From IMG/VR virus record IMGVR_UViG_3300036939_000082, positions 124,943 through 188,942 of that record: 64,000 bases of DNA. One strand, given 5' to 3'. Position 1 is the stretch's first letter. Every line of letters starts with the position of its first letter. Of this stretch, positions 941-28,436 are shown one piece after another. The notes under the pieces were generated by a model. The model did not search any database. It saw nothing but the letters and a program-made list of their open reading frames with translations, and was not told the origin of the DNA. The DNA comes from a virus. Both the position numbers and the translations under genes were made by a program.

Positions 941-951
941 ATATCTCTCCA

Positions 952-994
952 AAACAACAGAGGCCGCCCAAATAGCTTGGACGGCCGACGTAGC
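952..994 (-). promoter_or_regulatory. hairpin leader motif, copy 1 (upstream of tail fibre)
   Basis: Minus strand GCTACGTC-GGCCGTCCAA-gctat-TTGGGCGGCC-TCTGTTGTTT. Aligns without gaps to 28394..28436. Confidence 0.75.
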
Positions 995-3060: not shown

Positions 3061-3196
3061 AAATAAAAAAAACTACCTAGGGAATCCCAGGCAGGGCGCG
3101 TGTTTTGCTTTGGTAACAGGCGGGTGGGCGATCGGGTTAGATGTTCAGTTTCTCAATATCGTCGCGATTAAATTGCAGCCCGCGTCGAAATTGCTC

Positions 3197-5647: not shown

Positions 5648-5649
5648 AA

Positions 5650-9501: not shown

Positions 9502-12500
9502 TTACTGCTTGGCTTTTTCAACAATATCTCGCAACTGAGTGCGAATAACTCTTTGCGCCTGCGGTGATTCCAAATGCTTCATAATTTCGCCCAATAACTC
9601 TTCCGCTGCAAAACTTGGATTTGCTCCCTGAACTACAATGTCTCCAAAAACAAATTGAACGTTAAATTCTGTTGTCTGCGAAGATGCAGCGGGCGGAAGG
9701 GGAATTGGGGTTGCGGGGACAGGCAATGCTCGAAGGCTGGAAACCTCTACCCGATCGCCCTGGTTGATCGATTCCAATAAAGGTAGGTTCGACCGCGTAG
9801 CAGCAGCATTGACAACAAACTCCCCAGGCGACGCCAGAATAGGTACGCGATCGCCCGTAGATGTTCCCATTCCCGATATCAAACCGCCAGTCGCATAACG
9901 CTGTACTGGCTGAACCTGCAGCGGGTGGCTCGGCAAAGGCTGACTCCGCAGCGAAGGAGCGAACAATCCGCCGACGAACGGAATATTAGCTAAAACCCCC
10001 ATTGAATTAGTTACAACCCACTGAATCAGATTCCAAATTCCTTGGAAAACTCTAGTAATAGCGCTTCCTACAACAACAAATGTTTCTTTTAGTACCCACC
10101 CGACCGCCACAACTCCAGAAATTATCGCCAAAAAAGGTGCGGCTGCAACTACCGCAGCAGAAATACCCGCAATCACAGCCCCAATACCGCCCGTGACGGC
10201 TGGAACGACAGCCGCAGCAAAAACTCCTCCTATTGTCGCCAGCGCGCTCCCGACTCCCGATACAGCAGAGCCGATCGCCCCAACAGCGCCTGTTATGCCA
10301 GCAAGCACCGCGCCAAAATTTGCTGCCAAAGTTAAAGTAACGACTGTTCCGGCAATCGCAGCGCCGACAGTTGCTACTGCTCGAACAATTTTGGAGACAG
10401 CGTTAAATACAAATCCTAGCGTTTTAATTACACCGATCAGTACGAATGAAATTGTTTTAATGATTTTAATCAAACTAAAAGTTAAAGTTTTAACTGGAAT
10501 CAGCAATACATTGATAATTGATGATGCCAAACCTGATATGTTTCCATCCACTCCGCTAAAGATGCTGGCGATCGTCCCAAAAATTTGAGCGAATGGCTCG
10601 ACGATGGTATTTCCCAATTCGACGAGCGCGCTCCACACGCTATCAATTTCCTGAAAGAGCGTTCCAGTTACTTGGGCGATCGAATCCCAAATTCCCCCAA
10701 AAACGCCTGCAACGATACTCCCGATAAAGCTGAAGACTTTTCCCAATACCCATCCAACTGCCACAATTCCCAGAAGCAAAGGAATAAAAGGAAGGAAGGG
10801 GGAGATTGCTGCGGTTGCTGAGGCAAGGATTGCACTCAAACCGCTGAGAATCACTGGAACTAAGACTCCGCTAAATATTCCAGCGACACCGGTGGCAATA
10901 GTTGAAAACTCAATTAACGCGAGACTCAACCCAGCAACAAACGCTCCAGCACTTACAAACAGTCCCCCTATTTGCGTTAAAGAAGAAAATACCGCTAAAG
11001 CAGCGCCTATCCTCAACAGCGATTCAACCAATACGCCAAATACAGTAAAAGCAAATTTGCCCGCTTGGATTAACGATCCAATGATTCCTGCAACTGTTCC
11101 CACGATTGCAGAAGCAACACTGGAAATAGACTCAAGAATCCACGAGCTAAAATTGCCCAGACTATTTTTTGCATTTTCCACAACCTCTTGAATGCCGCCA
11201 ATGTTGTCTTTGTAAGATCGGTACAGCAAAAATAGGGCAGAGCTAATTCCCAATATCAAAGGTAAAAACGGCAGCAGCGGTACAATCATTGATTTGTAGG
11301 CAAGTTTGGCAGCACCCGCGACAAATCCGTAAGATGCGGCGATCGCCCCGTTAGCGCCGCCCACAATTCCTGCTTTAGTCAAAGCAGATGCGGCGATCGC
11401 GCTGTCTGCAGCTACGGAACTTGCTGCGTTCGTTGCGTAAAAAGCTCGCATCCCCGGCATCGCCGTCCGAATATCTAAGAATGAAGTCACCAAGTCATTC
11501 ATCATAAATATCGGTGTCGCTAGTTGCGGGGCGATATTCGACAATACGGAACCGATCGACAGAGAGAGACTTCTAACGCTTTCACCGACCTGCTTCCTAG
11601 CAGCGGTATCTTGCTCGACTGCTAACGTTACTCGCCGATGAGCAGATTCTAGATTCTTCAAACCTTGAGTATAGACTTTGCTATCGATCGCCCCTTGTTT
11701 GTAGAGATCGTTCAACCGCACCTGCCTCGCTGTAATTCTGTGAAGGTTGGTTTGGGACTCTACCGGATTCCGACTAACGCTCGACATTGCCAACTTCGCA
11801 TCAAACTTCAACCCGCCAAGCGCTTCGCCAGCTTCGGCAATTTTAGACGGAGATAGCGCGGTGAGCGATCGATCTAAAAATCTGTAAATTGCATTGCCTT
11901 CAATCTTTGCCGACAGCGCCAAGTCCGACAGCCGACTTTGAATAGTCTCTGTAGTGTTGACCCAGTTTTTGCGAATCCAGTAAGTCGGTCCCGGCGAGGC
12001 TTCCGACAAATCGCCCTGCAATTGCTGTCCGGTTTGTTTCGCTTTCCTGCCGATGCCCGCGATCGCCCCGACAATTTTGCCTCCGGTTTTTTCCCAAATT
12101 GCGCCCACTGTTTTTAAAGGCTGTTCGAGGAACTGGGCGATCGCTGCACCTAGTTCTCCTAACTCCGACATTAGTCGCCCTTTCAATTCTGTGGCGTTGC
12201 TACCGAGAACGCCGATACTAGCAATTATGTCGGGAATCCCTTTGAAAACGCTAAAGATGTCGAACGGCAGGGAAACATCTAGACCTAACTTGAACAGAGC
12301 AACGCCTACATCTTTTAGTCCAACCAATATTTCAGCTACAACGCCTGCCATCTTCAATCCAAAAGTACCGATATCTTTTGCAAAACCGAGGAAACTGCCA
12401 GCAATCTCGCTCGCGGTCAGCGCAACGCCCGCTAATTGTGCCTTGAAGCTTGCAAAACCTTCTTGTACCCCCGCGAAGGCTTCCTTGGATTTTCGAGAGA

Positions 12501-15500
12501 ATGACGACAGAAGCGCAACAAACCTCAATACAGATTTGTATAAACCTAGAACGGCGGTCATTACCCGAGCCGGCCAGTCCAGCACAAAACGAAATGCCCA
12601 TACAAACTTTAGTGCGAAGGCAGACAGCTCAATTCCTATTTGGGTAAAAACCCACAAAACCTTGAACAAAGGTGGGAGTACAGTTGTAGAAAAATTAACT
12701 ATTCCAGCTAGTATTTTGCCGACAACTTGCCCGAAGTCTTTACCCGCAGAAGCTGCGCGATCGGTGTCGCGACCAGCAGAAGTCAATCCCTGAGAAAACT
12801 GCCCCAAGTTTTTTAGAATCCATCCCAAAAATTCACCCAAATGTCTGACAGCAGATGAAACGCCTGTTAGTTTTGATGTCATTTCATCGGAGGCGATCGC
12901 CCCGCTGTTTACCGCTCTAGCAATATCGAACAAAGTTTGACCAAAATCAATAGCTGACTTACTCGCAGAAATCACTATACCGATCAAATCTGTCAGGGGC
13001 TGCTGAACCTCAGAAAATAAACTGGTTGCAAAATTAGAGATGAATCCATTTAGGGATTTAAACCCATTTTTTATTACATCTAATAAATTAAATTTCGCAA
13101 TAATTTGAGTGGCTACCCATGTCGCAGGCGCTATCAACTGTAGCAGCGAGTTTGTTATCTTGGTAACGGCTTCCTTCCACGCTTCAGGAATTTTGACTGT
13201 TGGGCTGTGATTCAATAAACCGATCAATGTCTGACCCAGCCATTTGGCAAAGTCTGCGATCGGAGTCAATATGGTTTGAAATTCTGCTGCAAACTTCTCC
13301 CATTTCCTTTTAATCCAGTCTGCTGCTTTCCCAAAGGCGATCGGGACTTCTTGTAGGGCTTGCTCAAATAGTTGAGGAACTCTAGAGCTGAAATCTTGCA
13401 ACCCCGTCAAAACAGTTAAGAACAAATCCTTTCTGTTCAAGAATTCCGTGAGGCGCTGCCATTGAGCCTGGACGGAAGCGATCGCGCCATTTATACTGGG
13501 AATAATTTTAGCGATTTGCTCTTTCACTTTTTCAAACAAAGAGGGAATAGATTCGCCAAAATTTTTCATTTTTGCAGAAATACCTGTAAATAAATCCGCA
13601 GAACTCAAGAAGGTAATAAAATTCGGCCATTCCGACTTAATCCAAGATATTGTTTCGCCAAACTTTGTACCAATCAACGTTAGGAAGTCCAAAGCTCCTG
13701 GAATCATTGGAGTCTCAGACAACCAAACAGATAATTTATTCCATTTCTCTTGAATAAATGCAACCGTATTGCTAAGCCTTTCCCCCAGCAAAGCAATTTT
13801 GACAAACAGATTTTGAATTGCCGGGATCTCGAATTTCAATCCAACTTCGATCGCCCACGCAGACAGCCTACCGCTTAAGTCTTTTAACCTATCAAAAAAT
13901 CCTTGAAATATTTGCCCGGTAGCCAGCGACTTCTGAACTTCCGACCATTTTTCTCTTAACAAACCCGAAAACAATGTAAATTCCAATCCGACCTTAAGCA
14001 ATCTATCAAACAGCCAACTGAATAAATTAGTTCCGCTCATCCAGCCTACAAACTTACTCCACGCAGCCTCCAAAATATTTACGGTTGAGAGAAAAGCTTG
14101 AGAGATATTTTCTGGCTTAAAAGCTTCGCGCAGCCGATCGCCCGCAACTCGAAATAGATCGCTCTGTCGCAACCAGTCTCCTAGCTGTTGCCACGATGAT
14201 TGAACTTTGACGATCGCCCGATCGAAGTATTCCTCAACGTTCAACATCTTCATGATTTGGCGGAACTTCGACTCGACTGCAGAAATTGCACCGCCAAACC
14301 CTTTCTGAACTGCCGCTGCAATATCTGGGGGCAGTGCGACGAGAATAGTGTTGAAAAAGCCGCGCCAGAAGTCTCCGACATATTTGAGGGGCGCTGTTAG
14401 AGCTTCTGTGATTCCCGGCACCAATCTTTTAAGGCGATCGGGAATTGACTCGGAAGATCCGTCTATGGAGCCAAATAGTTGGCTGATGCCGGTGATCGCA
14501 TCCTTGAACGTAAAATTCTTGATAGACTCCTGAACCTGAAAAATTCCATTTTTAATCGACTGCACCGCGAGATCGACCTGTTCCGCGAAAAGTTGTTTGA
14601 TGGCTGGAAAATGGTGTTTAACGCTGTCGATCGCAAACGCCACAGCATCAGTCACTGACTTGACTGCGTTAATCAATATGGATGCAACCATTTCTCCTGC
14701 TTGCTCTCCCGACTTGAAGGCTAAAAAGAAGTTATTGATAGATTCAGTTGCGCGTTTGAGGGTAAAGCCTAACGGTCGGAAAACTTGCTCGATCGCCTCA
14801 CCGATTCCCCGCAACACTTGGAACGAACCTCGGGCGATCACCTTCAACCCATCGTCCGCGCTGCGCCCAAAATTCTCAAACGCAAATCCCAGCCCTCGAA
14901 AGCCTTCTTGAATTAAAGTAAAATCTCCTTTGAGCGCGGGCAGTATACCTAGGGCGATCGTTTTGAAAGCACCCGCCGCTTCCACCAAGCCCCACAGCGC
15001 TCCAGCCAAAATCTTGCCCGCGCCAATCCCAATCTTAATTAGCCCGGTCAAAATCGTGCGGATACCCAAGAAGTTTGCAGCGATTACCGCAGCCGTAAAA
15101 GCGACCCCCCCCAGCACTAGAAGCAGCGGAGAAATGCCCGACAGGGAAAATAGTCCGAAGGCGATCGCCGACAAGCTCATGCTGTTGAATCCCGACAGTA
15201 CCCCTCCAACTCCATACTTGAAGTTACCGAAGAAGTCGCGAGCCGCATCCCCTAGTTCCACAAAATTGAGAGTTAGCAAGGCTTTTGCCGATCGTCCAAC
15301 AAAGTCAACCAAATCGTTGCCCAATTGACTCAGACTGCTTGTAACATACTCCATCCCCGGTGCAAACAGAATACTGGCACTGCCTACTCCGCGATCTGCA
15401 AGATACTGATAGCGGTCGCCCACGGCTAACGCGAAAAAACTTGCAGCTCTAATCGCCTGACTTTTGAGATCGTTTGTTGGCGGTGACAGCAATATCTCGC

Positions 15501-18500
15501 TAGCGGAATTTGTTAAGTTACCGCGCAGGATCGATCCGGTTTCCTTGGCGTTTGCTTGAATATCGCCCATCCACCCGCCGATCGCCCCAACAGTTTTTTC
15601 CCAGTAGTGGCGAATCCAGTAAGTCGGACCGGGAGATCCTTCGGAAACAGCCTTTTGTAATTCGTACCCAGAATCTTCTGCTGGCTGCACCAAGGAATTA
15701 ATGTTTGCAGTAATAGCTGAAGCGGTATTGACCCATGCCGCATTTGTACTGGCAGCGCCTAAATCGCCCAATCCGATCGCCCCGGTCACACCGACACCAA
15801 CCGTGTTGGCAGTTTTCGGGGCTGCACCGCTAAATATTCCCGCACCTGCTTTGGCAGCCAAGTACGTTTTTTTCTCGATAAAGTCTTGTTTTCTTGAAGA
15901 GATAAAATCTTTAGTTTTGTCAATTCCAGATTTAACTGTACCTTGAATAGAGTTTGCAATTTTTGGCGCATTTTCTTTTATACCTTGAATCAAAAAACTC
16001 AAGAATTTTTGTGCGGAACTTGTTTCTGCAACTTCTAACGGCAAAAGGTTTTCACGAGATCGATCGGCGATCGCCTGTTTAACGGGCAATTGCATAGGTG
16101 GGTGTAAAGTGTTTATTGCCATTAGAATTTCGCCTAATACACTATTTATTGCTTCCAGTTGTACAATTTGTTGCGACTTCCCAGGCTGTCCCGGTGCAAG
16201 TTTAATTGCATCATTCAAAGAATCTTGTCCAACCAATGCTTTATCTAGCAATGCTCGATCGGGAATCTTCGCTCCCACGGATGCAGCCGTAGCACTCAAC
16301 CTAGCATTAGAGAACATCCCTTCTTGATTTTTGGCAGATGCTGCCAATTGCTCTTCTATATATTTTTGACCGGCTTGATTGATTTTGTAGACATCTTCTG
16401 TTTGACCCAGCAGTCCGCCAAGACCTTTTTTCTGTACAGTAATCTTCGTTGCCAAACCTGCGTATTCTGCTTGAGAGGATAATGATTTTGAATTCAATCC
16501 TTGGAGTATCGTGTCTGCAATCTTAAGTTCTTCTTTCTGCATCTGAGTTTGAACTTGCGTTCTAAACGCAGATTCTTTGTCAAATACATTTCTAATTTCT
16601 ATAAAATCGGGAATGTGTACCTTATCTAACAGTGGAATTCCCTCTAACGGATTCCATCCTCTTTTTTGTTGATCTAAATCATTGGAAATATCTTTTTGTC
16701 TTGATTGTTCGGTTCTTTTTTCCCATCCTTCACCTTTTAAACCAAGCCCTATTTGATATTTGCGCTGCGCTGACACAGAACTTTTTCCTAAATCGGGAGC
16801 TTGAGCGGTTGCCAATGACCTTGTTTCTTCTTGAGGCTTGTCAAGTAGAGCAAGCAAAGATTTAGTATAAAAAGCAATGCGATCCAATGTAGAAACTATT
16901 GATACAAAAAGTCCTCTATGTAGGTACAATTCAGACTCGATCGCCCGAGAACCTTGGGTGAAAAAACCTTCCATTCCGACATAAGTGTTTGTCAGTGAAT
17001 TTTTGGTATTAACAACAGCTTCTTTACCTTGACTAACAACTAAGTTTGCCTGTTTTGCTTTACCACTAAAGAAATTGCCAACTGGCGAAAATATACCCGT
17101 CAATATGCCAGCAACTTCTTTGGCGGGAGTTAGCAGCCAATTCATTGCCCCTGATATTCTTTCCACCGCCCCTTCCCATGCAGTTGGGATTTTCTCTGTG
17201 GGGTTGTGATTTAAAGCGTCAATAAGACCCAATGCTATTTCTAAAGCAGTATCGACCAACGGCATATCGAGAAACCAGTGTACAAACCCCGTCCAAGCTT
17301 TTTGAATTGCTTGAACAGAACCGGAGAATAGATTACTAATTGCGGTTGTCAGCTTAACCGTTTTTGTCCTAATATCCGCAAAGTCAGTAGTGAAAGCAAG
17401 CGTTAGAACAGATAGAGCTGTTGTTATGCCTCCGATTCCCAGTATCAACGTGCCAAGTTCCCCTAACATTCCTAACCCAAAAATCGGCTTAAGTAAATTG
17501 CCAAATTTAGAAATGCTTTTGCCCGCTCCGCTTTGTTGCAGTGTTCCCAACATTGCTGGAGCGGTTACTGTTGGAGATCCTCTTTGAACAAAGCCGCCCA
17601 TACTCCGGGCAGAGTGACTTAGCTGCGGTGGCGCTTCCCTTGAGAATCTTCTTTGAAGCATCGCTTCTATTCTTGTCGCTAGATTCTTATTTCTTTCTTT
17701 GTTCGTGGCAAACCTCCAAAGTGTTTGCGCCTGTGCGGTCTGCTGCTGCCTGATTTGAGCGTGGAGAAGTTGAGCTTGAGTGTCTAATTTCTTACCAACG
17801 GAATCAAGAGGCGACAGTACCGAAGTAAGTGCAGCGACGACTTTGCCGAAGCCTATCTGTAAATTGTCTTGCCACGACAATTTCTGTTTTTCACCCGTAG
17901 CTCCTAATGCTATTGAATTGATAAATTCTGTTTTGCGTCGCTGCTTGGCATCATCGGCTTGGAGCGATTCGGACATTTCTTCTCCTACCCCCTTCGCTGG
18001 AGCGACCATCCCTTGTATCGAGCCTGTTATGCTTGCAACAGCTCCCTCCCATGCTGTCGGTATCTTCTCCGTAGGGTTGTGGTTGAGAGCGTTTATTAAG
18101 CCCTGCGCTACGTTCAGTGCTGGCTGTACGATCGCCATCAATTTCCCGCCAAACGCATCAATAAATCTTTGCCACGCAGCGGTAACAAAGGCGATCGGCG
18201 CTGACAGGGCTTGAGAAAGCATATCGCCAGCAGATCGCGCCAAACTTCCAATACCTAAAAAGTTGTTTTTAAAGGCTAAATACAAGCCCCCCGCAGCTAG
18301 CCCGATCGCCGCAACCCCTGCAATCAAAGGAGCTAGCGGTAGCGCTGCTGCTCCCACCGCTCCGGCGATCGCTCCGCCAATGCCAGTTAGTCCGGCGATA
18401 GTTGCTCCCGACACCGAGACTATCGCTCCAAAACTAGCTCCCAACGCAGCCAGTACCGGAGCGGCCAGTCCGCCAACCGCCCCGATCAAAGTAAACAGTT

Positions 18501-21500
18501 CTGTTACCTTGTAAAGACTTTGGGCAGTTTCTTCGTCGATAAAACCCATGTTTTGCAGCGAAAAGAAAGCTGTCTGCGCCGCAAACCCGGCGGCTGTCAC
18601 AGCACCGCCCACGGCCATTCCAGCCTTGCCAACTCCTCCCACCGCGCCGACTAATTTATGAAAAAATCCAACTGATTTGGTTGTAGCCTGTTCTGCCGCT
18701 TGAGGGATGCGGGCGATCGACTGCTGGGTAACTTGCGTCGCGCGCTGCATATCTCGGGCAATCTCTGCTCCCGTTCCCGCCGCCGCCTGAGCCATTTGAT
18801 TCATGTTTGCAGTGGTAGAGTGTTCGGTATTTTTCCAGGCTGCGCTGGTCACGTCGGATGCGCGGTGGTTGAGGCTGCTCACAATCTTGACTCCCGCCCA
18901 CGCAGCGCGCTTCACCATCGTCCACCAATTATTCCCGGTAATTCTGTTGGTGGCTTCTTGCCACGCAGTTTCAGTGCGGGTAGCAGCCCCTTGAAAGTAA
19001 GTAGAAATTCCTCTGGCTGCGGACGAAGCGCCCTTCAGTATTGATGCGGATATCTTCTCGGTCAAGGGGAGTATATTGTTACCATATTCAGCCATCCCGC
19101 TGTCAATGCTAACGTCGGCCGAATCTATCAGTCCGCGACGCTCTAAACTCCGGTAGTGCCGCCGCCCTCCCCGGCTGGCTTCTCTAATTGTTGTTTCGCT
19201 TTGGGGAATTGCAGCTTGGCGCGATCGCGCGTTCAGCGCATCAGCTCCTTGTCCAACTTTTTGAGAAGCAGTCTTCAGCAATTCAGCAAGTCCAAACAAA
19301 GCTGCTTTTGCCTTAGAAGCAGGAGAGTTAAACTGTTTGGTGTATTCAATCCGATCCCCCAAAGTTGCTGCGCGGCGTTTAGCAGCAAGACCCAGCCTAG
19401 AGTCCCCTTGAGACTGAGCTAGTCTTTCTGCTGCCGCTTTGTGCTTTTGTAAATTTGCAATATCTTTGTTGCCAAAAACATTAGAAAAAAAGTTTTTGAT
19501 ACCAGAAAACAAATTGCCGATCGCCCCTAAGATTCCGCCTTGCTGCGATCTCGCTTGGTTCCCCGCTTGACCCAACACTCCGGCAACCGCCTTAAACAGT
19601 TCCCCTGCTTTGTCAACTATTTTAACCGTCCAAGATTTAGCTCGTTCTGCATCAAATCCGCTGGCGCGATCGACAAAAAACTTTGACATCGAATCGCCGC
19701 TGCGGGCTAAAAATCGGGAGAAATTATTAAGGAAATTGCTGAACGGGTTTGTCCCGATCAACCCTTCGACTTCGCGGGCGATTCGGTTGGTTCCGACTGA
19801 CATAGCGATTCGGGCGCGATCGATGATGCTCGAAATCCCAATCAATACTGGTTTGCCCAGTACGGGAGAGATATCTGCAACTATTTTTTTAACAAGTCCA
19901 CCTGCTCCCGTTTTCGCTGCGAGTGCTGTTACGCCCCCGGTAAAATTCTTTATCAATTCAGGGAATGCTTTAGCAAAAAATACCTGATAAGGTGCAACAG
20001 ACTTCGCTGTGTAATTAGGATTTTCAATGATTTCGCGAGCCCTAGCTTCATTTACATCTAAAGCTTTTCCTAAAGCTTTAGTAATATCTTCAATCTTGTT
20101 GCTCATCCCTAATTTGTTGAGTCTGTCTTTGATTGAAATATTATTGCCATTGCTATCTTTTTGATCTTTTAGGATGGACTGCAAGATAGTGTCTTGAGTT
20201 TTTCGATCCTTAATATCAGTTTTCGTAAGCTCTGCAAACATTTGACCCATAAATTGATAATGGGTTTTCGGGGCTTTCTCACGCCCTTCTGTCATCATGT
20301 GTTCCAAGCTGTTTCGCTGAGCAGTTCTGAAATCTTTATTTAACTTCTCGATTCTTTGAACAAATTTAGATCCTTTGATACTAACTTCTGCTGCTTTATA
20401 CAGATCGCCAGCTAGTTTTATTGACGAATCTTTGGCAGATAAAGCTGACTTGTAAATACCGGAGTAAAAATTGCGGAGCGGGCGCACAATATTTTCCGCC
20501 ATTTCTACACTCATAAAAGGTATTTTGATCAATTTTGATTCTAGAGAGTCTATTTTATCAATTGTTGATCGATTAAATCGCTCGAAACCCGCATCTAGGT
20601 TTTCAAGAAAAACCTGTACGTTAACTTTTAGCTGTTCTAAAGGATTTTTTAGTTTAACTTTATCAATATTCTTGAGTTCGCGTGCCGAAGACAAACCAAT
20701 CAAGCTAGCAATTTGTTCTTGCTGTTCCTGACTGGCTTTTAAAACAAATTTACCAGTCAACAAGTATTGATCGAATACAGCAGCAAGTGAGTCATCTCTG
20801 CGGAGACTGTTTCGCAAATCGTTTAATTCATCTTTGCCTCCTATACCAGCATTGGTTAATTGTTTTTGCAGCGTATCAAAATCTGTTTCTTTGAGCTGTT
20901 TACCCCGATCGCCCGTACCGTGCGTTAGAAACCTTCGCAACTTTTGAATGTCTTCTTTGTTTAAATCGGGCGCGGATTTTAGTCTATCTAAGAATGTCTT
21001 TAGCCCATCCACCCCCTTAAACTCAGATCGCTTCTCGCCAAAACTAGCTTCTAGCATTCCAGTTAGTTTGGTAATTTCTTGACCTGTAGCTTCTCGCTGA
21101 AACTTTCCTGTTTCTATAAATTGATTAAAAAATTGATGCAACTGTTTGTGTTCTGGTTCCCTCAATTTTCTCAAAAGTCCATCTAGGTTGCCGTGTATTG
21201 GGTTGTTTTTAACTAAAGCGTCAAGTCCTCTTTCTCGCGCCCGTTTCAACAATAAGGCAGCACTAGCTTCAGATTGAATCAATTTTTCAGTTCTAGCTTG
21301 AACTATTCGCGCTTGAATTGCGATTGTTTTGTCAAATCGCATAGATTCTAATATCTTGGGAATACCAGTCCATCCAAAGAAGGTGCGAGCTAGTGTATTG
21401 CGAGTAGAAGTAACTTGCCCTTCTAGCAAGTTAGAAGACTGCTGCATTGCAGTACCAAGATTTCTCACGCCTTCTACGGCTACATTGCCAAATCCAGTAA

Positions 21501-24500
21501 CTACTTGTCTCGACCTCCCAGAAGCTTCTTGAAGTTCTTTCGCAGCCTGCTTATTTGCCGATTCAAACTCTTTAAAAGAGGGTATAGTTACTGCAATAAA
21601 ATCAGCTTGTCGCTGATTAATCTTGTTGATAACATCCTTGACGACCTTTTCGTATTCTCCACGGTGAAGAGTCTCCCCTATTGTTTTTGCTGTTTTTATT
21701 TGAGCTGCATAAGCCTTGATTTCGTCTTCGCCAAACATATTTGTACCCGGTTTCCCCGGTCTGTCTGACGATCTAATGTTTGACAAAACCGCCATCATGC
21801 TATCTCGAAAAGCGTTTAGTTTGCTCGCGTAAGTGCTTTCTGCAGACTTTAGCGCACCTCTAATCTTTTCAGACGAAGCGGCAGTGTCAATCGATTTATC
21901 TCCTTTATCTTTGAATCTAGACAGTTGAATGTCGAAAGCTCTCTCGCTATCTGGTTTATCTTTCGATACTTGCGGTAATTTTGTCTTGCTTACGTAAAGG
22001 TATTCGGCTTTAATATCTTCAACGTGCAAATTAGCCATCGCCTTCTGGAAATTATTCAAAAGGTCAATCGCCACATTCTTGCCACCGGCTAACTTCACTA
22101 GCTCTTCGTTGCTCGGGGCATTGCCAAATCGAGAAAATTCAGCATCCAACCCGGATCTTTTCGCTGCCTCCCGGCGTATGTTTTCAAACTGCAAGCCCCG
22201 CCCCGCCTTGACATTTTCGCCGCCCCGACCGCTCATTTTTAGCAGTTGGCGACCGATATCGGTAACTTGGTACTGTTCTATACCGAATCGGTTGCGACGT
22301 TTTTCTACAGCCGCTCCGCTCACGCCCTCGGTAATGCCGTTTTTGTCTTTGAGGTAATATCGGCGTTCTGCATCTGCCAATCCTTTCCCAAAATCAGTTC
22401 CCCGCTTGACTTCGGAAATCAAAGCGCGTTCCGATAATGCCTGTTCTTGTCGCTGGGCTTTAGCTAACTCTTTCTGATAGCGCAGCGCAGCCTTTGATTT
22501 GCCAACCCTTTGATCTCCAAGCATTGTCGCTTGCTGCTGAGTTTGGAAGTCTTGAGAATAAGCCAGCGGGTTGGCAATTCCGGCAACTGTCGATCTGCGG
22601 CGCACTTTATTTGCAACTTCGCTCAAGCCAACCTGTACGTTAGCGCTGCTAGCAACTTGCTTGACCCGATCGCCCACGCCTGCTATTGCCTCCGAAACTT
22701 GCAAGATGCGTCCGACAAACAAGAGCACGTTGCTGGAAATCATCTGGAACGCACCGCCGATATTCCGCGTCAGCAGCAGCGCGATCGCGAAGACTCCCGA
22801 ACCGATTACCGGAAGAAATTTAACAAATTGTTCTGCGAGGTTGCCGATGAACCCAGTTAAATCCGGGGATACATACAGCCCTAAGAATCCCGCTATTCCC
22901 TGCATCGCCACATTCAATGCGTCGATCGGGTGCTGGAGGGCGGTGATGATTTTATCTAAAGTCTGAAATCCGGTAGCGTACTCGTAAGACAAGAATCCGC
23001 CGAGTTCGATCAGTCCCACGATCGCGAATTGGATCGGACTCAGCAATCCGTAAATTCTACCCAACACGCTAGCAACCGCCAAAATCTCCGGCCAAAAATC
23101 CGCAGCAAACCGAACTAATTTATCGAGTTGCAACTGGCGGACGTAAACCATCACCCCGGCGGTTGCTGCGACTAAATTTTTGGCAAAGAGTTCCGTCAAT
23201 CTGGTGATTTCACCGATCGGATCTCGGATCAGCCTGACAATTTCAGCAGCGCTTGCCCCGACGATCGCCCCTACTGTTTTACCCAAATAGGCGATCGCGC
23301 CTACTGCCCGCATCGCTGTCTGCTGAAACCCGAAGTTGATGACTCCAAACAAATCGCTAAAAATTTGCTTGACTAGCGGTACAAAGTTACCGCGCAACAA
23401 TGCTGCGATCGCGTCACCGTACTGCTGCGTCTTCAGTCGGATCAGTTTAAATGTTGCCAATATTGCAATCAGCACACCATCTGCCACCGCTACCGCCGCG
23501 AGAAGTACGCCCGCTAGCGGGTTTATGACGGAGAACTTAAAGACGTTGGCAAGGATAGACGAAACTCCGACAATCTCGTGAACCGTTACCCCAATACCTG
23601 TCCCTAATTTGTCAAAGACATCCATAACGGTTGCAGCCATCCCCGGTATCGCCTTCAAGAATCGGAACAGCACTTCACCGAGATCGACTACCACAAACCG
23701 CATGACTTCCAACACCTTGGCGACGGGCATCAAACTGACACCCAAAAGTCTGGTATTGGCGATCGCGTCTAACATCTCTTGATTGACTGGTTTCAGGATG
23801 TTGTACCAAAACAGCATCGTCAGACCCAATCTACTGACAATCTGGACGATCGGGGAAACCATCATCAATCCTTGGACGAGCTTGATAAATACTTTCATCG
23901 GACCCGATGCGCTTTCAAGGATTTCAACTAGCGATACCAAACGCTTCTCTCTCTCAGCCAGTCTCCTCGCTGCGGGAGTAGCTAAAACTTGGAATATTTC
24001 AGCTTGTTTCCTAGAAATAAAGTCCAGCGGAACTGCACTCCCCGATACCAACCTCGCAACTTCGTTCAAGCTCCTATTCAATCCCAGTGCAATATCGACA
24101 GGGTTGATGTAGTTAGCAAGATTAAATATTTGGGACAATCCTCCAAAACCACCCTTCTTAATAATTCCCGCCAATCCTTTGGTTCGGATGTAAAAAGCCA
24201 AGAACTTAAAAGCTGCTGCCGGGTTGAGAGCTTTCATCAGGATATTAGAAACGGGACTTAACCCTTCTCTAAATGCGTAAACTGCTCCCGACATTAAATC
24301 GGTAAAAATCTTTCTGTAGCTTGAGAAAAGAGCAACTAATTGTTTTGTCGGAAAAAACCTCAGCAGCAGATTTAGGTAGCGGGGCGCAGATGCCACAATT
24401 AACTGAAAGAATCCGCCCAGAGCTTTAGTTGCAACCAAAAACGCAGCCGACAAGTGTTTGCCGATATAGGGAATTTCGAGGATTAAGCCAGCAATGCCAA

Positions 24501-27500
24501 TTACTGCGCGATCGATCGCCAGCAACATTGTTCTTCCAACAGCAGCAGCGACAGATTGAGCGTTAAGCGAGATCGCCCGCAGGATATCCGTAATTGGAGT
24601 CAGCTTGCTGATAATTTCCTGCAATACCGCCAATACTGGCAAAGTAACGATTGCATTGAAAGTAAAAATAACGAGAGAGGAAATAGCGGAAATAGTCCTG
24701 AGCGCAGCGGGTAAAACGGTTCCAGTCAAAAAGCCCATAATCCCCTGAACTGAAGGAGACTTAGCTAGCGACACCAGTGCCTTTTCCATCGGCAAAATAG
24801 CAGTCACTAGCGGTATCAGGGGCGGCAGCGCCGAGAAAAGCGGGAAAGAAGTAAATGGATTGAAACTTAAAATTGGTTCGATTCCGGCGTAAATTTCCTT
24901 CCCAATTTCCTTGGACAAATCTCCGACGCGGTGGAGGTAAGCAATCAGTCCTACTAGCGGGCCTCGAATAAAATCTTTAATTGCTAAGTAAGTTTTGTCG
25001 ATATCAACATCGATCGCCATTCCCCCCGGGAACATTGCGGGCATGGACTTCGTAAAAGTTGTCAATCCCTCGCTCAGCCCCTCATTTAACTTCTGCTTCA
25101 TCCCGACTGACAGGGAATTGAAAATTTTGTCGGAAGTTTTTTCTAGAAATTCCGGCATTGCATCGATCGCGCCCATGAATCCCCGCTCAATTCCCCGGAT
25201 CAATCCGGTGGAAGTGGCGATCGCAATTAGCCCCGGCATCGCATATAAGAAAGCCCTGGGAATTCCTTCTCCAATAATGAACGCTAACTCTGGAACGATT
25301 AGCGCTGCACCTTCTTCTAACTGAGCTAGCAGAGTTAGCGGCAGCGACGACAAAGTTAGCAGTGTAAAACTGAGAAAGTCAAAATTTTCTTTAACTCCAT
25401 CAATAATACCCCGCTCGAAGTCTCTGATTTTTGTAACCGCTTCACCAATAACTGAAAGCTTTCTAACGGAGTTAGCGACTAAATTAATCGCCCCTCCGAG
25501 CAGTTGCTGCTGAGCCTCCATTCTTGAGGATTCTGTTATATCTCCAATACCTAGAAAGGCACGGTTGACCAAACCTGCAGCGTTCCGAATCCTAATAAAT
25601 AGCTTTTCTAAAAAGGCGATCGTGTAATCCCACTTTTCTCGAATCATATAGGTCGGTCCCGGCGATGCCTCAGCCAATCCCCCTTGCAACAATTTGCCAA
25701 TCTGGGCTACGAAATCAGCAAAAGGTGTCAGCAAGTTTTTGATGTAGTTCAGCGTGTAATTCCACGAATTCTCGATCGCCTTGCCAGCCAACTGAAAGGG
25801 CTGCGCGACGAACTTGAAAATATCGCCTCCGATCGCCCGCCCGGATTTCCGCCAAGCTTCAAAAGCCGCGGTCGCATATTCAATCGCACTGCTGACTGCT
25901 GCAAACGGAGCGGTTAATACCGAACCCGCAACAGATGTGGGAATATCTAGCGCAGCGAGCAGCGCTTCTGTAAATCCTTGAATTATTCCAACCGCGAAAC
26001 CGGCAACGGAACTGACGGCGCTGAAAATAGTACCCAGTAAATTGATTTCTGGGTTGATTTGTTCGAGGATGGCGTTCAATGCGAGGAAACTGGCGATCGC
26101 GATACCGAGCGGAGACAGCGCAAACGACACCGACATCGAAGCCAGCGACCTCGAAACCACTGCAATATTTCGCGCAATCCCGCTCAATCCAAAATTGACA
26201 TCCCTAGATGTGGAAGCAATCGTGTCAGAGAAAGCTTCCGCAGCAAACGAGGCAGTCTTGAACGGATTGGAAGCCGTACCTTCAAAAGCTCCCATCGCCG
26301 CCGGGAAAAATCCGGTCAGCGGAATCACGCTAGCTTGCAGTGCAATTCCAGCAGCAGTGGCAGTAGCAGCGGCTTGCGAAAATCCAAACAGCACTACACC
26401 GACTGTTCCGACAGCAACCGACACCGCCGCAAACCCTGCCGCAAGCACCCCAACTCCGGCAATCAATCCTCGAACAGGAGACGGCAGGTTGGCGACTGCC
26501 AGCAACAGTTTGGTTGAAGCGTCGGCAATCGCGCGCACGATCGGGGCGATCGGTTCGATCAAATTAACCTGAACTGCTTCAAAAGCAGAACTGAGCGATC
26601 GGAACGAACCCGCCAGGTTATTTTCCATCACCTGCGCCATCGTTTTAGCTGCGCCGGATTTCCCTTTAAATTCAATCCCCAGTTCGCCCATCGCTGAGGT
26701 TAGTTTGCTGACTGCCGCATTTGCGTCGGGAGCAGTCGTCAAGATCGCATCAAATAAATTCTCGCCTTCGGGTATTTGAAAATATCCCGACAACTGACTT
26801 AACTGGGCACTCGAAAGATTTCCTAGATATTCATTTGATTTAACTAGGGCGATCGTAGCAGCATCTAATTGTTGCAGCGCATTTTGATAGTTGCCTGCTT
26901 CCCGCAGGAGCGAAGTAAAAACATCTTTATCTGTGGCTAATTTGTCTATACCCTGAGATTTAAACAACTTCTCATAATCTTCAACAGCAAAGGAACTGCC
27001 CCTACCCGCCAAGCTCAGGCGAGTAAATTCTTGCATTTGGCCGATCGCAGCCGATGCGCCCGAGATGCCAGTCGTACCAAAAATATCTTTTAATGCAGTA
27101 ATTTGCTTTGATTGAGCAATTTGTCCTAATTTTTCTACGTCGTCGCCTGCTTGAATTATGGAATCCAAGGAAGCCGGATCTAATTGCAGGTTCGTACCGA
27201 TATCTTGCATGACATCGACAATATTTCGCATTTTGCCGCTCGTATCGGTCAGCGAAATACCGTATTCGTTTAGCGCCATCCTGCCCCTTAGCGTAGGTGC
27301 AGCTAATTTTAGGAATGCTCCCCTCGCAGCCGTTCCAGCTTTATCTGCTTGAATCCCGGCGTTTGACATTACCCCAATCAACGCCGAGGTTTCTTCAATT
27401 CCCGCGCCAAACAGAGCGGCGTTTGGCGCAGCGTAACTCATCGCTACACCCAACTGCTGAATGTTGGTATTTGCGCTAGCAGCCGAAAGCGCCATAACAT

Positions 27501-28383
27501 CGGTAATGTGTCCTAAATCGCTAACTCCCATCCGCATCCCGCTGAGCACGTTGGAGGCAATATCGGCCGATTCAGCCAATCCCAGTTGTCCGGCCGAAGC
27601 TAAATCCAAAGTTGCCGGAACCCCCGCAAAAATCTGTTGAGCGTTAAAGCCCGCCGCCGCCAAATATTTTTCGGCATCCGCAGCCTCTCCTGCGGTAAAT
27701 CGAGTTGTCGCCCCCAATAACTTGGCTTTTTCCCGCAACCGATCTAAATCCTTGCCAGTAGCTCGCGAGATAGCTGCCACCGCACTCATCTTGTCGTCAA
27801 AATCAGCAAAAACTTGAATGGCTTCTTTTCCGGCTTGCTTCAGAGGATTGAGCGCTATATTCCCAACTTGATTGAGCGCTCCAAACTCGCCCTTCCTTTG
27901 GGAGAAAAACGCAGCTTTGCGTTCGGCATCGTGCAGGGCAAGCTTGTCCTTGATGACGCGCTGCTGCCGTTTGAGGACTTCGGTAAATTCCCGCTCCGCT
28001 GCCGTTTCGCCCTGAACTTGCTTTCTTAATTCTTTCAGGTTTTTAACGTAAGCGTTGACAGCGGTTGTGGCTTTCTTGAACTGGCGATCGTCTAGCACGT
28101 CTCCAAAATCAATATTTGCCGCAGTAGCTTTCAATGCCCTAAACTCAGCTTTTAGAGGCTGCAAGCTCTTTGCCATGCTTCCGGAAGCAGTGTCGAGCGA
28201 GCGGGCTGCAGATTTAAATTGACCTGCCAGCCCGCTGCTGTCTACGGATTTGGAAGCGTCGGCAACCGCTTTTTCCATGCTGCGCAAGTGTTTGACGACA
28301 GATTTCATGGAAGAAAAACTGCCGTCTGCAACTAAGAAATTAAACTGACCAACCAGTCCGTAACGATCTAGACTCTCTTCCAA
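9502..28383 (-). CDS. giant phage tail tape-measure protein, TP901 family (~6,290 aa)
   Basis: N-terminal TP901 core (FADFDDKMSAVAAIS...GATTRFTAGEAADA...ANTNIQQLGVAMSYAAP...GIQADKAGTAARG), long amphipathic repeats, and the C-terminal TMP motif YATGGLISG.GTSTGDRVPILASPGEFVVNA. TTG start at 28383 inferred from the leader motif. Confidence 0.9.
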   Translation of the reverse strand: MEESLDRYGLVGQFNFLVADGSFSSMKSVVKHLRSMEKAVADASKSVDSSGLAGQFKSAARSLDTASGSMAKSLQPLKAEFRALKATAANIDFGDVLDDRQFKKATTAVNAYVKNLKELRKQVQGETAAEREFTEVLKRQQRVIKDKLALHDAERKAAFFSQRKGEFGALNQVGNIALNPLKQAGKEAIQVFADFDDKMSAVAAISRATGKDLDRLREKAKLLGATTRFTAGEAADAEKYLAAAGFNAQQIFAGVPATLDLASAGQLGLAESADIASNVLSGMRMGVSDLGHITDVMALSAASANTNIQQLGVAMSYAAPNAALFGAGIEETSALIGVMSNAGIQADKAGTAARGAFLKLAAPTLRGRMALNEYGISLTDTSGKMRNIVDVMQDIGTNLQLDPASLDSIIQAGDDVEKLGQIAQSKQITALKDIFGTTGISGASAAIGQMQEFTRLSLAGRGSSFAVEDYEKLFKSQGIDKLATDKDVFTSLLREAGNYQNALQQLDAATIALVKSNEYLGNLSSAQLSQLSGYFQIPEGENLFDAILTTAPDANAAVSKLTSAMGELGIEFKGKSGAAKTMAQVMENNLAGSFRSLSSAFEAVQVNLIEPIAPIVRAIADASTKLLLAVANLPSPVRGLIAGVGVLAAGFAAVSVAVGTVGVVLFGFSQAAATATAAGIALQASVIPLTGFFPAAMGAFEGTASNPFKTASFAAEAFSDTIASTSRDVNFGLSGIARNIAVVSRSLASMSVSFALSPLGIAIASFLALNAILEQINPEINLLGTIFSAVSSVAGFAVGIIQGFTEALLAALDIPTSVAGSVLTAPFAAVSSAIEYATAAFEAWRKSGRAIGGDIFKFVAQPFQLAGKAIENSWNYTLNYIKNLLTPFADFVAQIGKLLQGGLAEASPGPTYMIREKWDYTIAFLEKLFIRIRNAAGLVNRAFLGIGDITESSRMEAQQQLLGGAINLVANSVRKLSVIGEAVTKIRDFERGIIDGVKENFDFLSFTLLTLSSLPLTLLAQLEEGAALIVPELAFIIGEGIPRAFLYAMPGLIAIATSTGLIRGIERGFMGAIDAMPEFLEKTSDKIFNSLSVGMKQKLNEGLSEGLTTFTKSMPAMFPGGMAIDVDIDKTYLAIKDFIRGPLVGLIAYLHRVGDLSKEIGKEIYAGIEPILSFNPFTSFPLFSALPPLIPLVTAILPMEKALVSLAKSPSVQGIMGFLTGTVLPAALRTISAISSLVIFTFNAIVTLPVLAVLQEIISKLTPITDILRAISLNAQSVAAAVGRTMLLAIDRAVIGIAGLILEIPYIGKHLSAAFLVATKALGGFFQLIVASAPRYLNLLLRFFPTKQLVALFSSYRKIFTDLMSGAVYAFREGLSPVSNILMKALNPAAAFKFLAFYIRTKGLAGIIKKGGFGGLSQIFNLANYINPVDIALGLNRSLNEVARLVSGSAVPLDFISRKQAEIFQVLATPAARRLAEREKRLVSLVEILESASGPMKVFIKLVQGLMMVSPIVQIVSRLGLTMLFWYNILKPVNQEMLDAIANTRLLGVSLMPVAKVLEVMRFVVVDLGEVLFRFLKAIPGMAATVMDVFDKLGTGIGVTVHEIVGVSSILANVFKFSVINPLAGVLLAAVAVADGVLIAILATFKLIRLKTQQYGDAIAALLRGNFVPLVKQIFSDLFGVINFGFQQTAMRAVGAIAYLGKTVGAIVGASAAEIVRLIRDPIGEITRLTELFAKNLVAATAGVMVYVRQLQLDKLVRFAADFWPEILAVASVLGRIYGLLSPIQFAIVGLIELGGFLSYEYATGFQTLDKIITALQHPIDALNVAMQGIAGFLGLYVSPDLTGFIGNLAEQFVKFLPVIGSGVFAIALLLTRNIGGAFQMISSNVLLFVGRILQVSEAIAGVGDRVKQVASSANVQVGLSEVANKVRRRSTVAGIANPLAYSQDFQTQQQATMLGDQRVGKSKAALRYQKELAKAQRQEQALSERALISEVKRGTDFGKGLADAERRYYLKDKNGITEGVSGAAVEKRRNRFGIEQYQVTDIGRQLLKMSGRGGENVKAGRGLQFENIRREAAKRSGLDAEFSRFGNAPSNEELVKLAGGKNVAIDLLNNFQKAMANLHVEDIKAEYLYVSKTKLPQVSKDKPDSERAFDIQLSRFKDKGDKSIDTAASSEKIRGALKSAESTYASKLNAFRDSMMAVLSNIRSSDRPGKPGTNMFGEDEIKAYAAQIKTAKTIGETLHRGEYEKVVKDVINKINQRQADFIAVTIPSFKEFESANKQAAKELQEASGRSRQVVTGFGNVAVEGVRNLGTAMQQSSNLLEGQVTSTRNTLARTFFGWTGIPKILESMRFDKTIAIQARIVQARTEKLIQSEASAALLLKRARERGLDALVKNNPIHGNLDGLLRKLREPEHKQLHQFFNQFIETGKFQREATGQEITKLTGMLEASFGEKRSEFKGVDGLKTFLDRLKSAPDLNKEDIQKLRRFLTHGTGDRGKQLKETDFDTLQKQLTNAGIGGKDELNDLRNSLRRDDSLAAVFDQYLLTGKFVLKASQEQQEQIASLIGLSSARELKNIDKVKLKNPLEQLKVNVQVFLENLDAGFERFNRSTIDKIDSLESKLIKIPFMSVEMAENIVRPLRNFYSGIYKSALSAKDSSIKLAGDLYKAAEVSIKGSKFVQRIEKLNKDFRTAQRNSLEHMMTEGREKAPKTHYQFMGQMFAELTKTDIKDRKTQDTILQSILKDQKDSNGNNISIKDRLNKLGMSNKIEDITKALGKALDVNEARAREIIENPNYTAKSVAPYQVFFAKAFPELIKNFTGGVTALAAKTGAGGLVKKIVADISPVLGKPVLIGISSIIDRARIAMSVGTNRIAREVEGLIGTNPFSNFLNNFSRFLARSGDSMSKFFVDRASGFDAERAKSWTVKIVDKAGELFKAVAGVLGQAGNQARSQQGGILGAIGNLFSGIKNFFSNVFGNKDIANLQKHKAAAERLAQSQGDSRLGLAAKRRAATLGDRIEYTKQFNSPASKAKAALFGLAELLKTASQKVGQGADALNARSRQAAIPQSETTIREASRGGRRHYRSLERRGLIDSADVSIDSGMAEYGNNILPLTEKISASILKGASSAARGISTYFQGAATRTETAWQEATNRITGNNWWTMVKRAAWAGVKIVSSLNHRASDVTSAAWKNTEHSTTANMNQMAQAAAGTGAEIARDMQRATQVTQQSIARIPQAAEQATTKSVGFFHKLVGAVGGVGKAGMAVGGAVTAAGFAAQTAFFSLQNMGFIDEETAQSLYKVTELFTLIGAVGGLAAPVLAALGASFGAIVSVSGATIAGLTGIGGAIAGAVGAAALPLAPLIAGVAAIGLAAGGLYLAFKNNFLGIGSLARSAGDMLSQALSAPIAFVTAAWQRFIDAFGGKLMAIVQPALNVAQGLINALNHNPTEKIPTAWEGAVASITGSIQGMVAPAKGVGEEMSESLQADDAKQRRKTEFINSIALGATGEKQKLSWQDNLQIGFGKVVAALTSVLSPLDSVGKKLDTQAQLLHAQIRQQQTAQAQTLWRFATNKERNKNLATRIEAMLQRRFSREAPPQLSHSARSMGGFVQRGSPTVTAPAMLGTLQQSGAGKSISKFGNLLKPIFGLGMLGELGTLILGIGGITTALSVLTLAFTTDFADIRTKTVKLTTAISNLFSGSVQAIQKAWTGFVHWFLDMPLVDTALEIALGLIDALNHNPTEKIPTAWEGAVERISGAMNWLLTPAKEVAGILTGIFSPVGNFFSGKAKQANLVVSQGKEAVVNTKNSLTNTYVGMEGFFTQGSRAIESELYLHRGLFVSIVSTLDRIAFYTKSLLALLDKPQEETRSLATAQAPDLGKSSVSAQRKYQIGLGLKGEGWEKRTEQSRQKDISNDLDQQKRGWNPLEGIPLLDKVHIPDFIEIRNVFDKESAFRTQVQTQMQKEELKIADTILQGLNSKSLSSQAEYAGLATKITVQKKGLGGLLGQTEDVYKINQAGQKYIEEQLAASAKNQEGMFSNARLSATAASVGAKIPDRALLDKALVGQDSLNDAIKLAPGQPGKSQQIVQLEAINSVLGEILMAINTLHPPMQLPVKQAIADRSRENLLPLEVAETSSAQKFLSFLIQGIKENAPKIANSIQGTVKSGIDKTKDFISSRKQDFIEKKTYLAAKAGAGIFSGAAPKTANTVGVGVTGAIGLGDLGAASTNAAWVNTASAITANINSLVQPAEDSGYELQKAVSEGSPGPTYWIRHYWEKTVGAIGGWMGDIQANAKETGSILRGNLTNSASEILLSPPTNDLKSQAIRAASFFALAVGDRYQYLADRGVGSASILFAPGMEYVTSSLSQLGNDLVDFVGRSAKALLTLNFVELGDAARDFFGNFKYGVGGVLSGFNSMSLSAIAFGLFSLSGISPLLLVLGGVAFTAAVIAANFLGIRTILTGLIKIGIGAGKILAGALWGLVEAAGAFKTIALGILPALKGDFTLIQEGFRGLGFAFENFGRSADDGLKVIARGSFQVLRGIGEAIEQVFRPLGFTLKRATESINNFFLAFKSGEQAGEMVASILINAVKSVTDAVAFAIDSVKHHFPAIKQLFAEQVDLAVQSIKNGIFQVQESIKNFTFKDAITGISQLFGSIDGSSESIPDRLKRLVPGITEALTAPLKYVGDFWRGFFNTILVALPPDIAAAVQKGFGGAISAVESKFRQIMKMLNVEEYFDRAIVKVQSSWQQLGDWLRQSDLFRVAGDRLREAFKPENISQAFLSTVNILEAAWSKFVGWMSGTNLFSWLFDRLLKVGLEFTLFSGLLREKWSEVQKSLATGQIFQGFFDRLKDLSGRLSAWAIEVGLKFEIPAIQNLFVKIALLGERLSNTVAFIQEKWNKLSVWLSETPMIPGALDFLTLIGTKFGETISWIKSEWPNFITFLSSADLFTGISAKMKNFGESIPSLFEKVKEQIAKIIPSINGAIASVQAQWQRLTEFLNRKDLFLTVLTGLQDFSSRVPQLFEQALQEVPIAFGKAADWIKRKWEKFAAEFQTILTPIADFAKWLGQTLIGLLNHSPTVKIPEAWKEAVTKITNSLLQLIAPATWVATQIIAKFNLLDVIKNGFKSLNGFISNFATSLFSEVQQPLTDLIGIVISASKSAIDFGQTLFDIARAVNSGAIASDEMTSKLTGVSSAVRHLGEFLGWILKNLGQFSQGLTSAGRDTDRAASAGKDFGQVVGKILAGIVNFSTTVLPPLFKVLWVFTQIGIELSAFALKFVWAFRFVLDWPARVMTAVLGLYKSVLRFVALLSSFSRKSKEAFAGVQEGFASFKAQLAGVALTASEIAGSFLGFAKDIGTFGLKMAGVVAEILVGLKDVGVALFKLGLDVSLPFDIFSVFKGIPDIIASIGVLGSNATELKGRLMSELGELGAAIAQFLEQPLKTVGAIWEKTGGKIVGAIAGIGRKAKQTGQQLQGDLSEASPGPTYWIRKNWVNTTETIQSRLSDLALSAKIEGNAIYRFLDRSLTALSPSKIAEAGEALGGLKFDAKLAMSSVSRNPVESQTNLHRITARQVRLNDLYKQGAIDSKVYTQGLKNLESAHRRVTLAVEQDTAARKQVGESVRSLSLSIGSVLSNIAPQLATPIFMMNDLVTSFLDIRTAMPGMRAFYATNAASSVAADSAIAASALTKAGIVGGANGAIAASYGFVAGAAKLAYKSMIVPLLPFLPLILGISSALFLLYRSYKDNIGGIQEVVENAKNSLGNFSSWILESISSVASAIVGTVAGIIGSLIQAGKFAFTVFGVLVESLLRIGAALAVFSSLTQIGGLFVSAGAFVAGLSLALIEFSTIATGVAGIFSGVLVPVILSGLSAILASATAAISPFLPFIPLLLGIVAVGWVLGKVFSFIGSIVAGVFGGIWDSIAQVTGTLFQEIDSVWSALVELGNTIVEPFAQIFGTIASIFSGVDGNISGLASSIINVLLIPVKTLTFSLIKIIKTISFVLIGVIKTLGFVFNAVSKIVRAVATVGAAIAGTVVTLTLAANFGAVLAGITGAVGAIGSAVSGVGSALATIGGVFAAAVVPAVTGGIGAVIAGISAAVVAAAPFLAIISGVVAVGWVLKETFVVVGSAITRVFQGIWNLIQWVVTNSMGVLANIPFVGGLFAPSLRSQPLPSHPLQVQPVQRYATGGLISGMGTSTGDRVPILASPGEFVVNAAATRSNLPLLESINQGDRVEVSSLRALPVPATPIPLPPAASSQTTEFNVQFVFGDIVVQGANPSFAAEELLGEIMKHLESPQAQRVIRTQLRDIVEKAKQ

Positions 28384-28393
28384 GATTGCCCCC

Positions 28394-28436
28394 AAACAAC
28401 AAAAGCCGCCCCATTGGGTGGGGCGGCCGACGTAGC
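28394..28436 (-). promoter_or_regulatory. hairpin leader motif, copy 2 (upstream of TMP)
   Basis: Minus strand GCTACGTCG-GCCGCCCC-acccaat-GGGGCGGC-TTTTGTTGTTT, about 10 nt before the TTG. Confidence 0.75.

Follow-up and report, generated by a model that had tools for sequence, protein, structure and literature searches.

Both the tape measure protein (TMP) and the tail length have been published for the Anabaena myophage A-1(L), with a TMP of 689 aa and a tail of 104.5 nm (PMC10966104), T4 (590 aa, 92.5 nm) and phage G (2,893 aa, 450 nm; PMC8570332), and P23-45, with 5,002 aa and 800 nm (PMC10770324 and its preprint). The scaling of ~0.15 nm of tail per TMP residue quoted in a first-pass annotation of this DNA holds across these four phages, at 0.152-0.160 nm, and one eCIS has a higher ratio, 0.229 nm per residue. 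In solved tails, including those of diffocin (PMC11329794) and A-1(L) (PMC10966104), the TMP runs once through the tail, as a parallel trimer or hexamer. Hydrophobic TMP segments have been proposed to act as a DNA conduit in thick-walled hosts, including for a cyanophage. Among the contractile phage tails that we found described, that of phage G is the longest (~450 nm); with all tail types counted, the maximum is ~0.8 to 1 μm, in P74-26. A similar contractile tail, of ~0.49 μm, is that of Bacillus phage 0305phi8-36.

The window, that is, the whole stretch of 64,000 nucleotides analysed here (positions 124,943 to 188,942 of IMG/VR record IMGVR_UViG_3300036939_000082, hereafter G000), contains a gene for a TMP of 6,293 aa. 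The first-pass annotation had set it beside that of Thermus phage P74-26, a comparison that did not stand: the tail of that phage is flexible and non-contractile, whereas the genome described here encodes a contractile sheath, which makes phage G the right comparison. Both TMPs are long helical proteins assigned to contractile tails (gp183 in phage G; PMC8570332), and an equal ratio of length to residues is assumed, but the TMP here is 2.2 times longer, no C-terminal wall-degrading domain was found in it, the host belongs to a different phylum, and the tail genes are scattered instead of forming a module. Among giant TMPs, gp96 of P23-45 and P74-26 (5,002 aa, ~800 nm; PMC10770324, PMC10034513) is the nearest described in length, the protein here being 26% longer; in contrast, gp96 belongs to a non-contractile tail and has an RNA polymerase (DFDGD) and a metallopeptidase, and neither motif was found here. 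The best calibration point is gp13 of A-1(L) (PMC10966104), likewise a contractile cyanophage, whose sheath is among the fold matches of the sheath described below; however, its TMP is nine times shorter, and its sheath has ~505 aa compared with 1,000 aa and a beta-rich insertion here. With TP901-family TMPs (TIGR01760, PF10145), the protein shares the N-terminal core, the helical body and the hydrophobic clusters, but it is ~7 times the median length of the ordinary hits (851 aa) and carries a clade-specific 70-aa module.

An 18.9-kb gene encodes a TP901-family tape measure protein

Translation of the window yielded an uninterrupted minus-strand frame of 18.9 kb (Table 1), comprising 6,293 residues and a stop with no internal stops, in agreement with the ~6,290 aa given in the first-pass annotation; over the same interval, the plus strand is closed, without a continuous frame. 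The TTG at position 28383 was preferred as the start because the homologues open with a methionine located 0-10 residues ahead of the same DRYGL motif. Alternative gene callers place the start 4 codons upstream (6,297 aa), and the longest frame possible for this ORF is 6,321 aa.

The N-terminal TP901 core and the TMP-type C-terminal motif, both recognised in the first-pass annotation, were recovered by profile searches. Indeed, the core (aa 183-453) matched TIGR01760 at 177.8 bits (cut-off 28.8), and aa 217-436 matched PF10145 with an E value of 2.5e-40 and 139 bits (cut-off 33.2). At the opposite end, aa 6153-6209 showed a 54% match to mycobacteriophage TMPs such as TM4 gp17, and PHROG TMP families matched both the N- and the C-terminal ends. 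The protein is the sole PF10145 match and the product of the longest gene in its genome. Judged by these profile matches, it is a genuine TP901-family tape measure protein.

Table 1. Position of the TMP gene, its domains and neighbouring features in the window.
Feature	Position	Strand	Details
Tape measure protein (TMP) gene	9502..28383	-	6,293 aa, TTG start; profile matches, homologue N-termini, dN/dS
TP901-type core domain	27025..27837	-	aa 183-453 (PF10145 aa 217-436)
First hydrophobic cluster	25981..26466	-	aa 640-801; three segments, mean hydropathy at least 1.9
Repeat module, copy 1	25572..25782	-	~70 aa, centre aa 903
Hydrophilic, charged block	18784..22536	-	aa ~1950-3200; best cargo candidate
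Repeat module, copies 2-7	11904..18984	-	centres aa 3169, 3432, 3724, 4247, 5055, 5459 (direct-repeat family D1)
Distal hydrophobic cluster	10120..11286	-	aa 5700-6088; eight predicted membrane-spanning segments
C-terminal TMP motif	9757..9927	-	aa 6153-6209; common to mycobacteriophage TMPs
C-terminal cap	9505..9680	-	hydrophobic hairpin, then terminal helix; conserved in all complete homologues
GC-rich hairpin and U-tract, terminator-like	28396..28428	-	8-12 nt before the TMP start codon
Gene (G000 124692-125894), 5' part	1..952	-	leader shares sequence with the TMP leader
Cell-wall hydrolase gene	1534..3060	-	endolysin-like and M23-like peptidase; hairpin-U leader as at the TMP gene

The gene is intact in a relative and under purifying selection

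No tandem repeats were found in the TMP gene, and its direct repeats are short (at most 71 nt) and diverged, making a repeat-collapse chimera unlikely. Two further assemblies, from NCBI and Logan and probably derived from the same sample as the record, call the same full-length gene. The stretch compared takes in the N-terminal 9 kb of the gene, and over it they are 99.995-100% identical to the record. In addition, a separate relative, the 188.5-kb IMG/VR genome G001, which is colinear with the record and circularly permuted, has an intact TMP of 6,291 aa with 87.8% identity to the 6,293-aa protein. The dN/dS ratio between the two genes was 0.116 overall and lay between 0.035 and 0.156 in every 500-codon window; by this measure, the gene is under strong purifying selection along its full length.

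Assembly chimerism had been named in the first-pass annotation among the findings that would refute its reading. The agreement among re-assemblies, the intact relative and dN/dS values of at most 0.16 all speak against an artefact, as do the full-length homologues, which number more than 20 and span 4,300-8,170 aa, one of them in a finished isolate genome. The probability that the frame arose by misassembly or by the chance joining of several genes is thus practically negligible.

A circular cyanophage genome with genes for a contractile tail

The source record comprises 188,942 bp. In another assembly, its two ends are bridged by a 5,897-bp segment with phage-like genes, which closes the genome to a circle of 194,839 bp (~195 kb), and the label of integrated provirus was therefore rejected. 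The joining segment trimmed from the record (L041:2100-7998) encodes an HTH regulator, a TnpB and an M78-family peptidase, a content that hints at an inducible switch.

The sheath gene (G000 88300-91302) encodes 1,000 aa. A profile built from 54 sequences hit solved sheaths at 3e-20 to 3e-8, the best match being 9ezm (3e-20) and the others including the Streptomyces CIS, T4 gp18 and Afp; the AlphaFold model reached a pLDDT of 86, and all the Foldseek matches listed were contractile-tail or CIS structures. The adjacent gene encodes a gp19-like tube according to Atlas features (0.95) and TM values of 0.67/0.85 to gp19 clusters, with a weak Pfam match (0.019); its profile gave no significant match to the PDB, and its single-sequence fold was uninformative (pLDDT 34). 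Two profile searches of the genome detected a spike OB fold (E 5e-4 and 5e-5), and a P2 gpI-like baseplate protein scored above the cut-off. Matches to gp25 (E 0.085) and J (E 0.014) were weak and below the cut-off, and both genes are conserved in pC052_F, the Nostoc element described below. The genome also encodes a terminase (1e-23), a portal (3e-19), an SU10-like major capsid protein (3e-4) that is conserved in relatives, and one gp26-like candidate for the tail assembly chaperone, which is not firm. By its gene content, the phage is contractile-tailed (myovirus-type). A siphovirus reading was rejected on account of the sheath, and an eCIS or tailocin reading on account of the terminase, portal and major capsid protein. 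The size of the sheath protein is unusual; at ~aa 150-680 it contains a beta-rich insertion made up of small repeated domains, which resembles tail-fibre domains and may decorate or stiffen a long sheath.

Structural genes are scattered over both strands of the genome, and the TMP gene itself, which has a gene of opposite orientation and unknown ORFs as neighbours and is located ~45 kb away from the sheath and tube genes, is absent from the usual tail-operon position. That position, after the chaperone genes, is usual for TMPs but not universal, and T4 scatters these genes too. The dispersal of the structural genes, together with the filing of a relative as a plasmid with ParA/ParB, would fit an element that has ceased to make normal virions, whether it is a cryptic phage-plasmid or produces headless tails, with the long gene in a cell-associated role. 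We regard this as highly improbable, since G000, G001 and pC052_F share a conserved set of head and tail genes, all of them intact, the TMP gene is under strong purifying selection, and several relatives assemble as complete circles. Neither ParA nor a tyrosine integrase was found in the G000 genome; ParA/ParB are present in relatives, and at least some of these would thus live as phage-plasmids.

The host is a cyanobacterium, as the first-pass annotation had supposed and as indicated by 127 occurrences of HIP1 in the genome against 1.6 expected and by relatives in Nostoc. Sheath relatives come from Nostoc, Allocoleopsis and Richelia records, and a relative of the histidine kinase described below was found in a Xenococcaceae MAG. 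Exact TMP peptides had no carrier among GTDB genome contigs, and the capsid protein had no match among cultured phages.

A clade of cyanophages with giant tape measure proteins

A profile search with the TMP returned as top matches ~20 clusters of 4,281-7,596 aa, followed by ordinary TMPs. Complete members of this giant-TMP family have both ends in common, and its shorter members comprise 1,901-2,761 aa, the 1,901-aa one being encoded on a contig of 126,238 bp, a size identical to that of a contig with the sheath family. Viral records were also chosen by sheath similarity alone and then scanned for TMP frames. Records with sheaths 48-53% identical contained frames of 8,062, 6,043, 4,867, 4,851, 4,305 and 3,686 aa, with none in one partial record, and those with distant sheaths (26-37% identity) had TMPs of 771-1,109 aa and little or no HIP1. 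On this evidence, the phage belongs to a clade of cyanophages with TMPs of 1,900-8,170 aa.

The longest TMP of the clade (WP_179070682.1, 8,170 aa) is encoded on pC052_F (NZ_CP040278.1), a finished plasmid of the cultured strain Nostoc sp. C052, and was annotated automatically as 'phage tail tape measure protein'. It is homologous end to end to the 6,293-aa TMP, with 45% identity over the first 1,040 aa and 34% over aa 850-3807, and the repeat module is common to both. Moreover, the two elements share 37 ORFs, including those for sheath (49%), tube, capsid, portal and terminase. The Nostoc element differs in the greater length of its TMP, with 11 module copies and an embedded J-domain, and in the presence of ParA/ParB. 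A literature search of incomplete coverage found no paper on pC052_F as a phage, nor any description of the clade.

In a tree of N-terminal regions, the 6,293-aa TMP fell in a group supported at 100/99 whose members, the Nostoc protein among them, all have 6,293-8,170 aa. Close pairs of TMPs in the clade differ by internal block duplications. Within its own family, this TMP is surpassed in length by proteins of 8,170 and 8,062 aa. Nor does it set the record among uncultured phages, given that huge-phage surveys have described proteins that reach 7,694 aa, without identification as TMPs.

In two complete relatives, G007 and G006 (L095, L096), PF10145 no longer detects the TP901 core of the TMP (~4,850 aa), and standard annotation would therefore miss these proteins. 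Contig JAESGK010000011.1 (L106, 520 kb) carries a close sheath homologue at a central position, which suggests an integrated member of the clade.

Protein anatomy and the portion that may act as ruler

In all 500-aa windows of the TMP, hydrophobicity showed a period of 3.6-3.67 residues at 1.7-4.1 times the shuffled signal (controls, 0.9-1.6), consistent with a predominantly alpha-helical, amphipathic protein. Nineteen strongly hydrophobic segments were detected, clustered mainly at aa 640-801 and 5700-6088. The C-terminal cap is presumed to be the spike anchor, by analogy with the diffocin and A-1(L) structures.

The helical signal is lowest in the charged block (1.7-1.9 times shuffled at aa 2000-3000), which is also compositionally distinct. 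This raises the question of whether the block (aa 1950-3200), or an N-terminal portion of the protein, could be cleaved, or stowed within the head or neck, as injected cargo, leaving only part of the chain as ruler and a tail of ~0.4-0.8 μm. A precedent exists in gp96 of P23-45, an enzyme-fused TMP that holds an RNA polymerase (PMC10770324), and five relatives carry J-domain inserts with an intact HPD. However, the block contains neither a catalytic motif (DxDGD, HExxH) nor a Pfam or PDB match, its Atlas hits were weak and TMP-like, and only 5 of 1,400 columns were invariant among 14 homologues. The DxDGD two-barrel polymerase motif was absent from all 28 giant-TMP family sequences. With Pfam, PDB, Atlas, motif and conservation checks all negative, the presence of a cargo enzyme in the TMP was rejected. 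Furthermore, the ratio in P23-45 is still 0.16 nm per residue even with a polymerase in its TMP, the J-domains occupy <1% of TMP length, and subtraction of 1,250 aa would still leave a tail of ~0.78 μm. We thus consider a partial ruler unlikely, albeit with a weight that should not be neglected.

The second half of the protein contains most copies of the ~70-aa repeat module, which consists of a helix, an SPGP or NHxP turn and a Trp-bearing helix. Copy number ranges from 1 to 11 across the family and rises with TMP length (rho 0.75, a value that ignores kinship). The helix-turn-helix pattern of the module and its near confinement to the giant-TMP clade (1 of 121 ordinary TMP hits) might favour a folded-back arrangement, in which fewer chains turn at the SPGP/NHxP motif and the tail is of ordinary length. 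Nevertheless, the seven copies are irregularly spaced, from 263 to 2,266 aa apart, which makes equal back-and-forth passes impossible. The variable copy number and the single pass of the solved TMPs, as parallel trimers or hexamers, also count against a folded-back chain, which we judge very unlikely.

The J-domains (PF00226) with an intact HPD are embedded in five giant TMPs, those of pC052_F, P0004, P0005, P0007 and P0011. In pC052_F, the domain lies at aa ~7260-7310 (L036:42540-42700) and scores above the Pfam cut-off. The domains comprise ~60 aa, are located 700-1,300 residues from the TMP C-terminus and have a patchy distribution on the tree; none was found in the 6,293-aa TMP or elsewhere in its genome. 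A J-domain inside a TMP was not described in the works found, within the incomplete coverage of the literature.

Predicted tail length, mechanism and possible role

Multiplication of 6,293 aa by the published ratios gives a tail of 954-1,006 nm, an extrapolation to twice the longest contractile calibration point, and the same ratios give 1,240-1,310 nm (~1.25 μm) for the TMP of pC052_F. We consider it probable that the TMP acts as a full-length ruler and sets a contractile tail of ~0.95-1.0 μm. As in solved tails, 3-6 copies would form an extended helical bundle through the tube, with the C-terminus on the spike and the N-terminus at the neck, and most of the 6,293 residues would set a tail of ~0.85-1.0 μm, equivalent to ~1,400 sheath subunits in ~240 rings. 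On contraction, sheaths lose about half of their length, and T6SS sheaths of 0.85-3.3 μm are known to contract (PMC5511345). A comparable shortening would push the tube out by ~0.45-0.5 μm, hence a predicted stroke of ~0.5 μm. After firing, the TMP would be released and its hydrophobic clusters would form a membrane conduit for DNA. Within the clade, TMP length probably changed through duplication and loss of internal helical modules, and in some members the TMP J-domain might recruit host DnaK for assembling the giant chain or drawing it in.

The likeliest selective reason for such a tail would be the need to pass a thick layer of sheath or slime on the way to the cell wall, a purpose that we find quite possible but short of probable. 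Only tentatively, and with rather more doubt, do we propose the wider picture of an undescribed clade of cyanophages whose free-floating contractile tails of 1.0-1.3 μm would exceed every described phage tail and would work as long-stroke drills on the sheath and slime of filamentous cyanobacteria, with reach tuned by duplication of TMP modules and, in some, a J-domain recruiting DnaK.

A tail of ~1 μm would be roughly twice the longest contractile phage tail that we found described and, together with the ~1.25 μm predicted for the Nostoc element, would extend the known range of free contractile nanomachines more than twofold. If true, these lengths would test the ruler rule at that scale, as well as the chaperoning and ejection of hydrophobic chains of 6,000-8,000 residues. 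They would suggest a concrete way in which phages might get to the ensheathed cyanobacteria of mats and crusts, and would provide a natural scaffold of long stroke that is of interest for contractile injection systems. These predictions are testable, given that a cultured strain carries the longest TMP of the clade, on a finished plasmid, and that TMP length varies fourfold within one sheath family.

Leader hairpins and other genes

Leaders of the hairpin and U-tract type seen ahead of the TMP gene were found before ~12 of 180 ORFs, for the most part genes of virion or lysis function, against a random background of 6/600. Five relatives have a similar hairpin, of different sequence, before the TMP gene; it is weaker in G001 and absent in one relative. 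Further leader hairpins were located at window positions 960-990 and at the G000 genes at 25130, 69367, 79964, 91302, 105209, 106064 and 126476. No Rfam match was obtained within the window. The structure might attenuate late genes or, as a 5' hairpin, protect the mRNA.

Other genes deserve mention. A 716-aa protein (G000 25130-27280) with lytic transglycosylase and M15 peptidase domains, conserved in pC052_F, is a candidate dual-hydrolase part of the hub. Two adjacent genes (L006:13209-13904 and 14064-18476; 231 and 1,470 aa) have nearly identical spike N-termini, which would fit a recent duplication or a swap cassette. On the plus strand of the window, positions 37514-40309 encode a 931-aa pectate-lyase-like beta-helix protein with a TIG domain, a candidate depolymerase for host slime that would bear on the idea of sheath crossing. 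Positions 30872-36172 (+) encode a 1,766-aa DarB-like antirestriction methylase-helicase (PHROG E 0), as in the phage-plasmid P1. Finally, at positions 3722-6974 (+), a gene for a GAF histidine kinase precedes those for two probable response regulators, and this kinase family is kept at 41-87% identity in related contigs.
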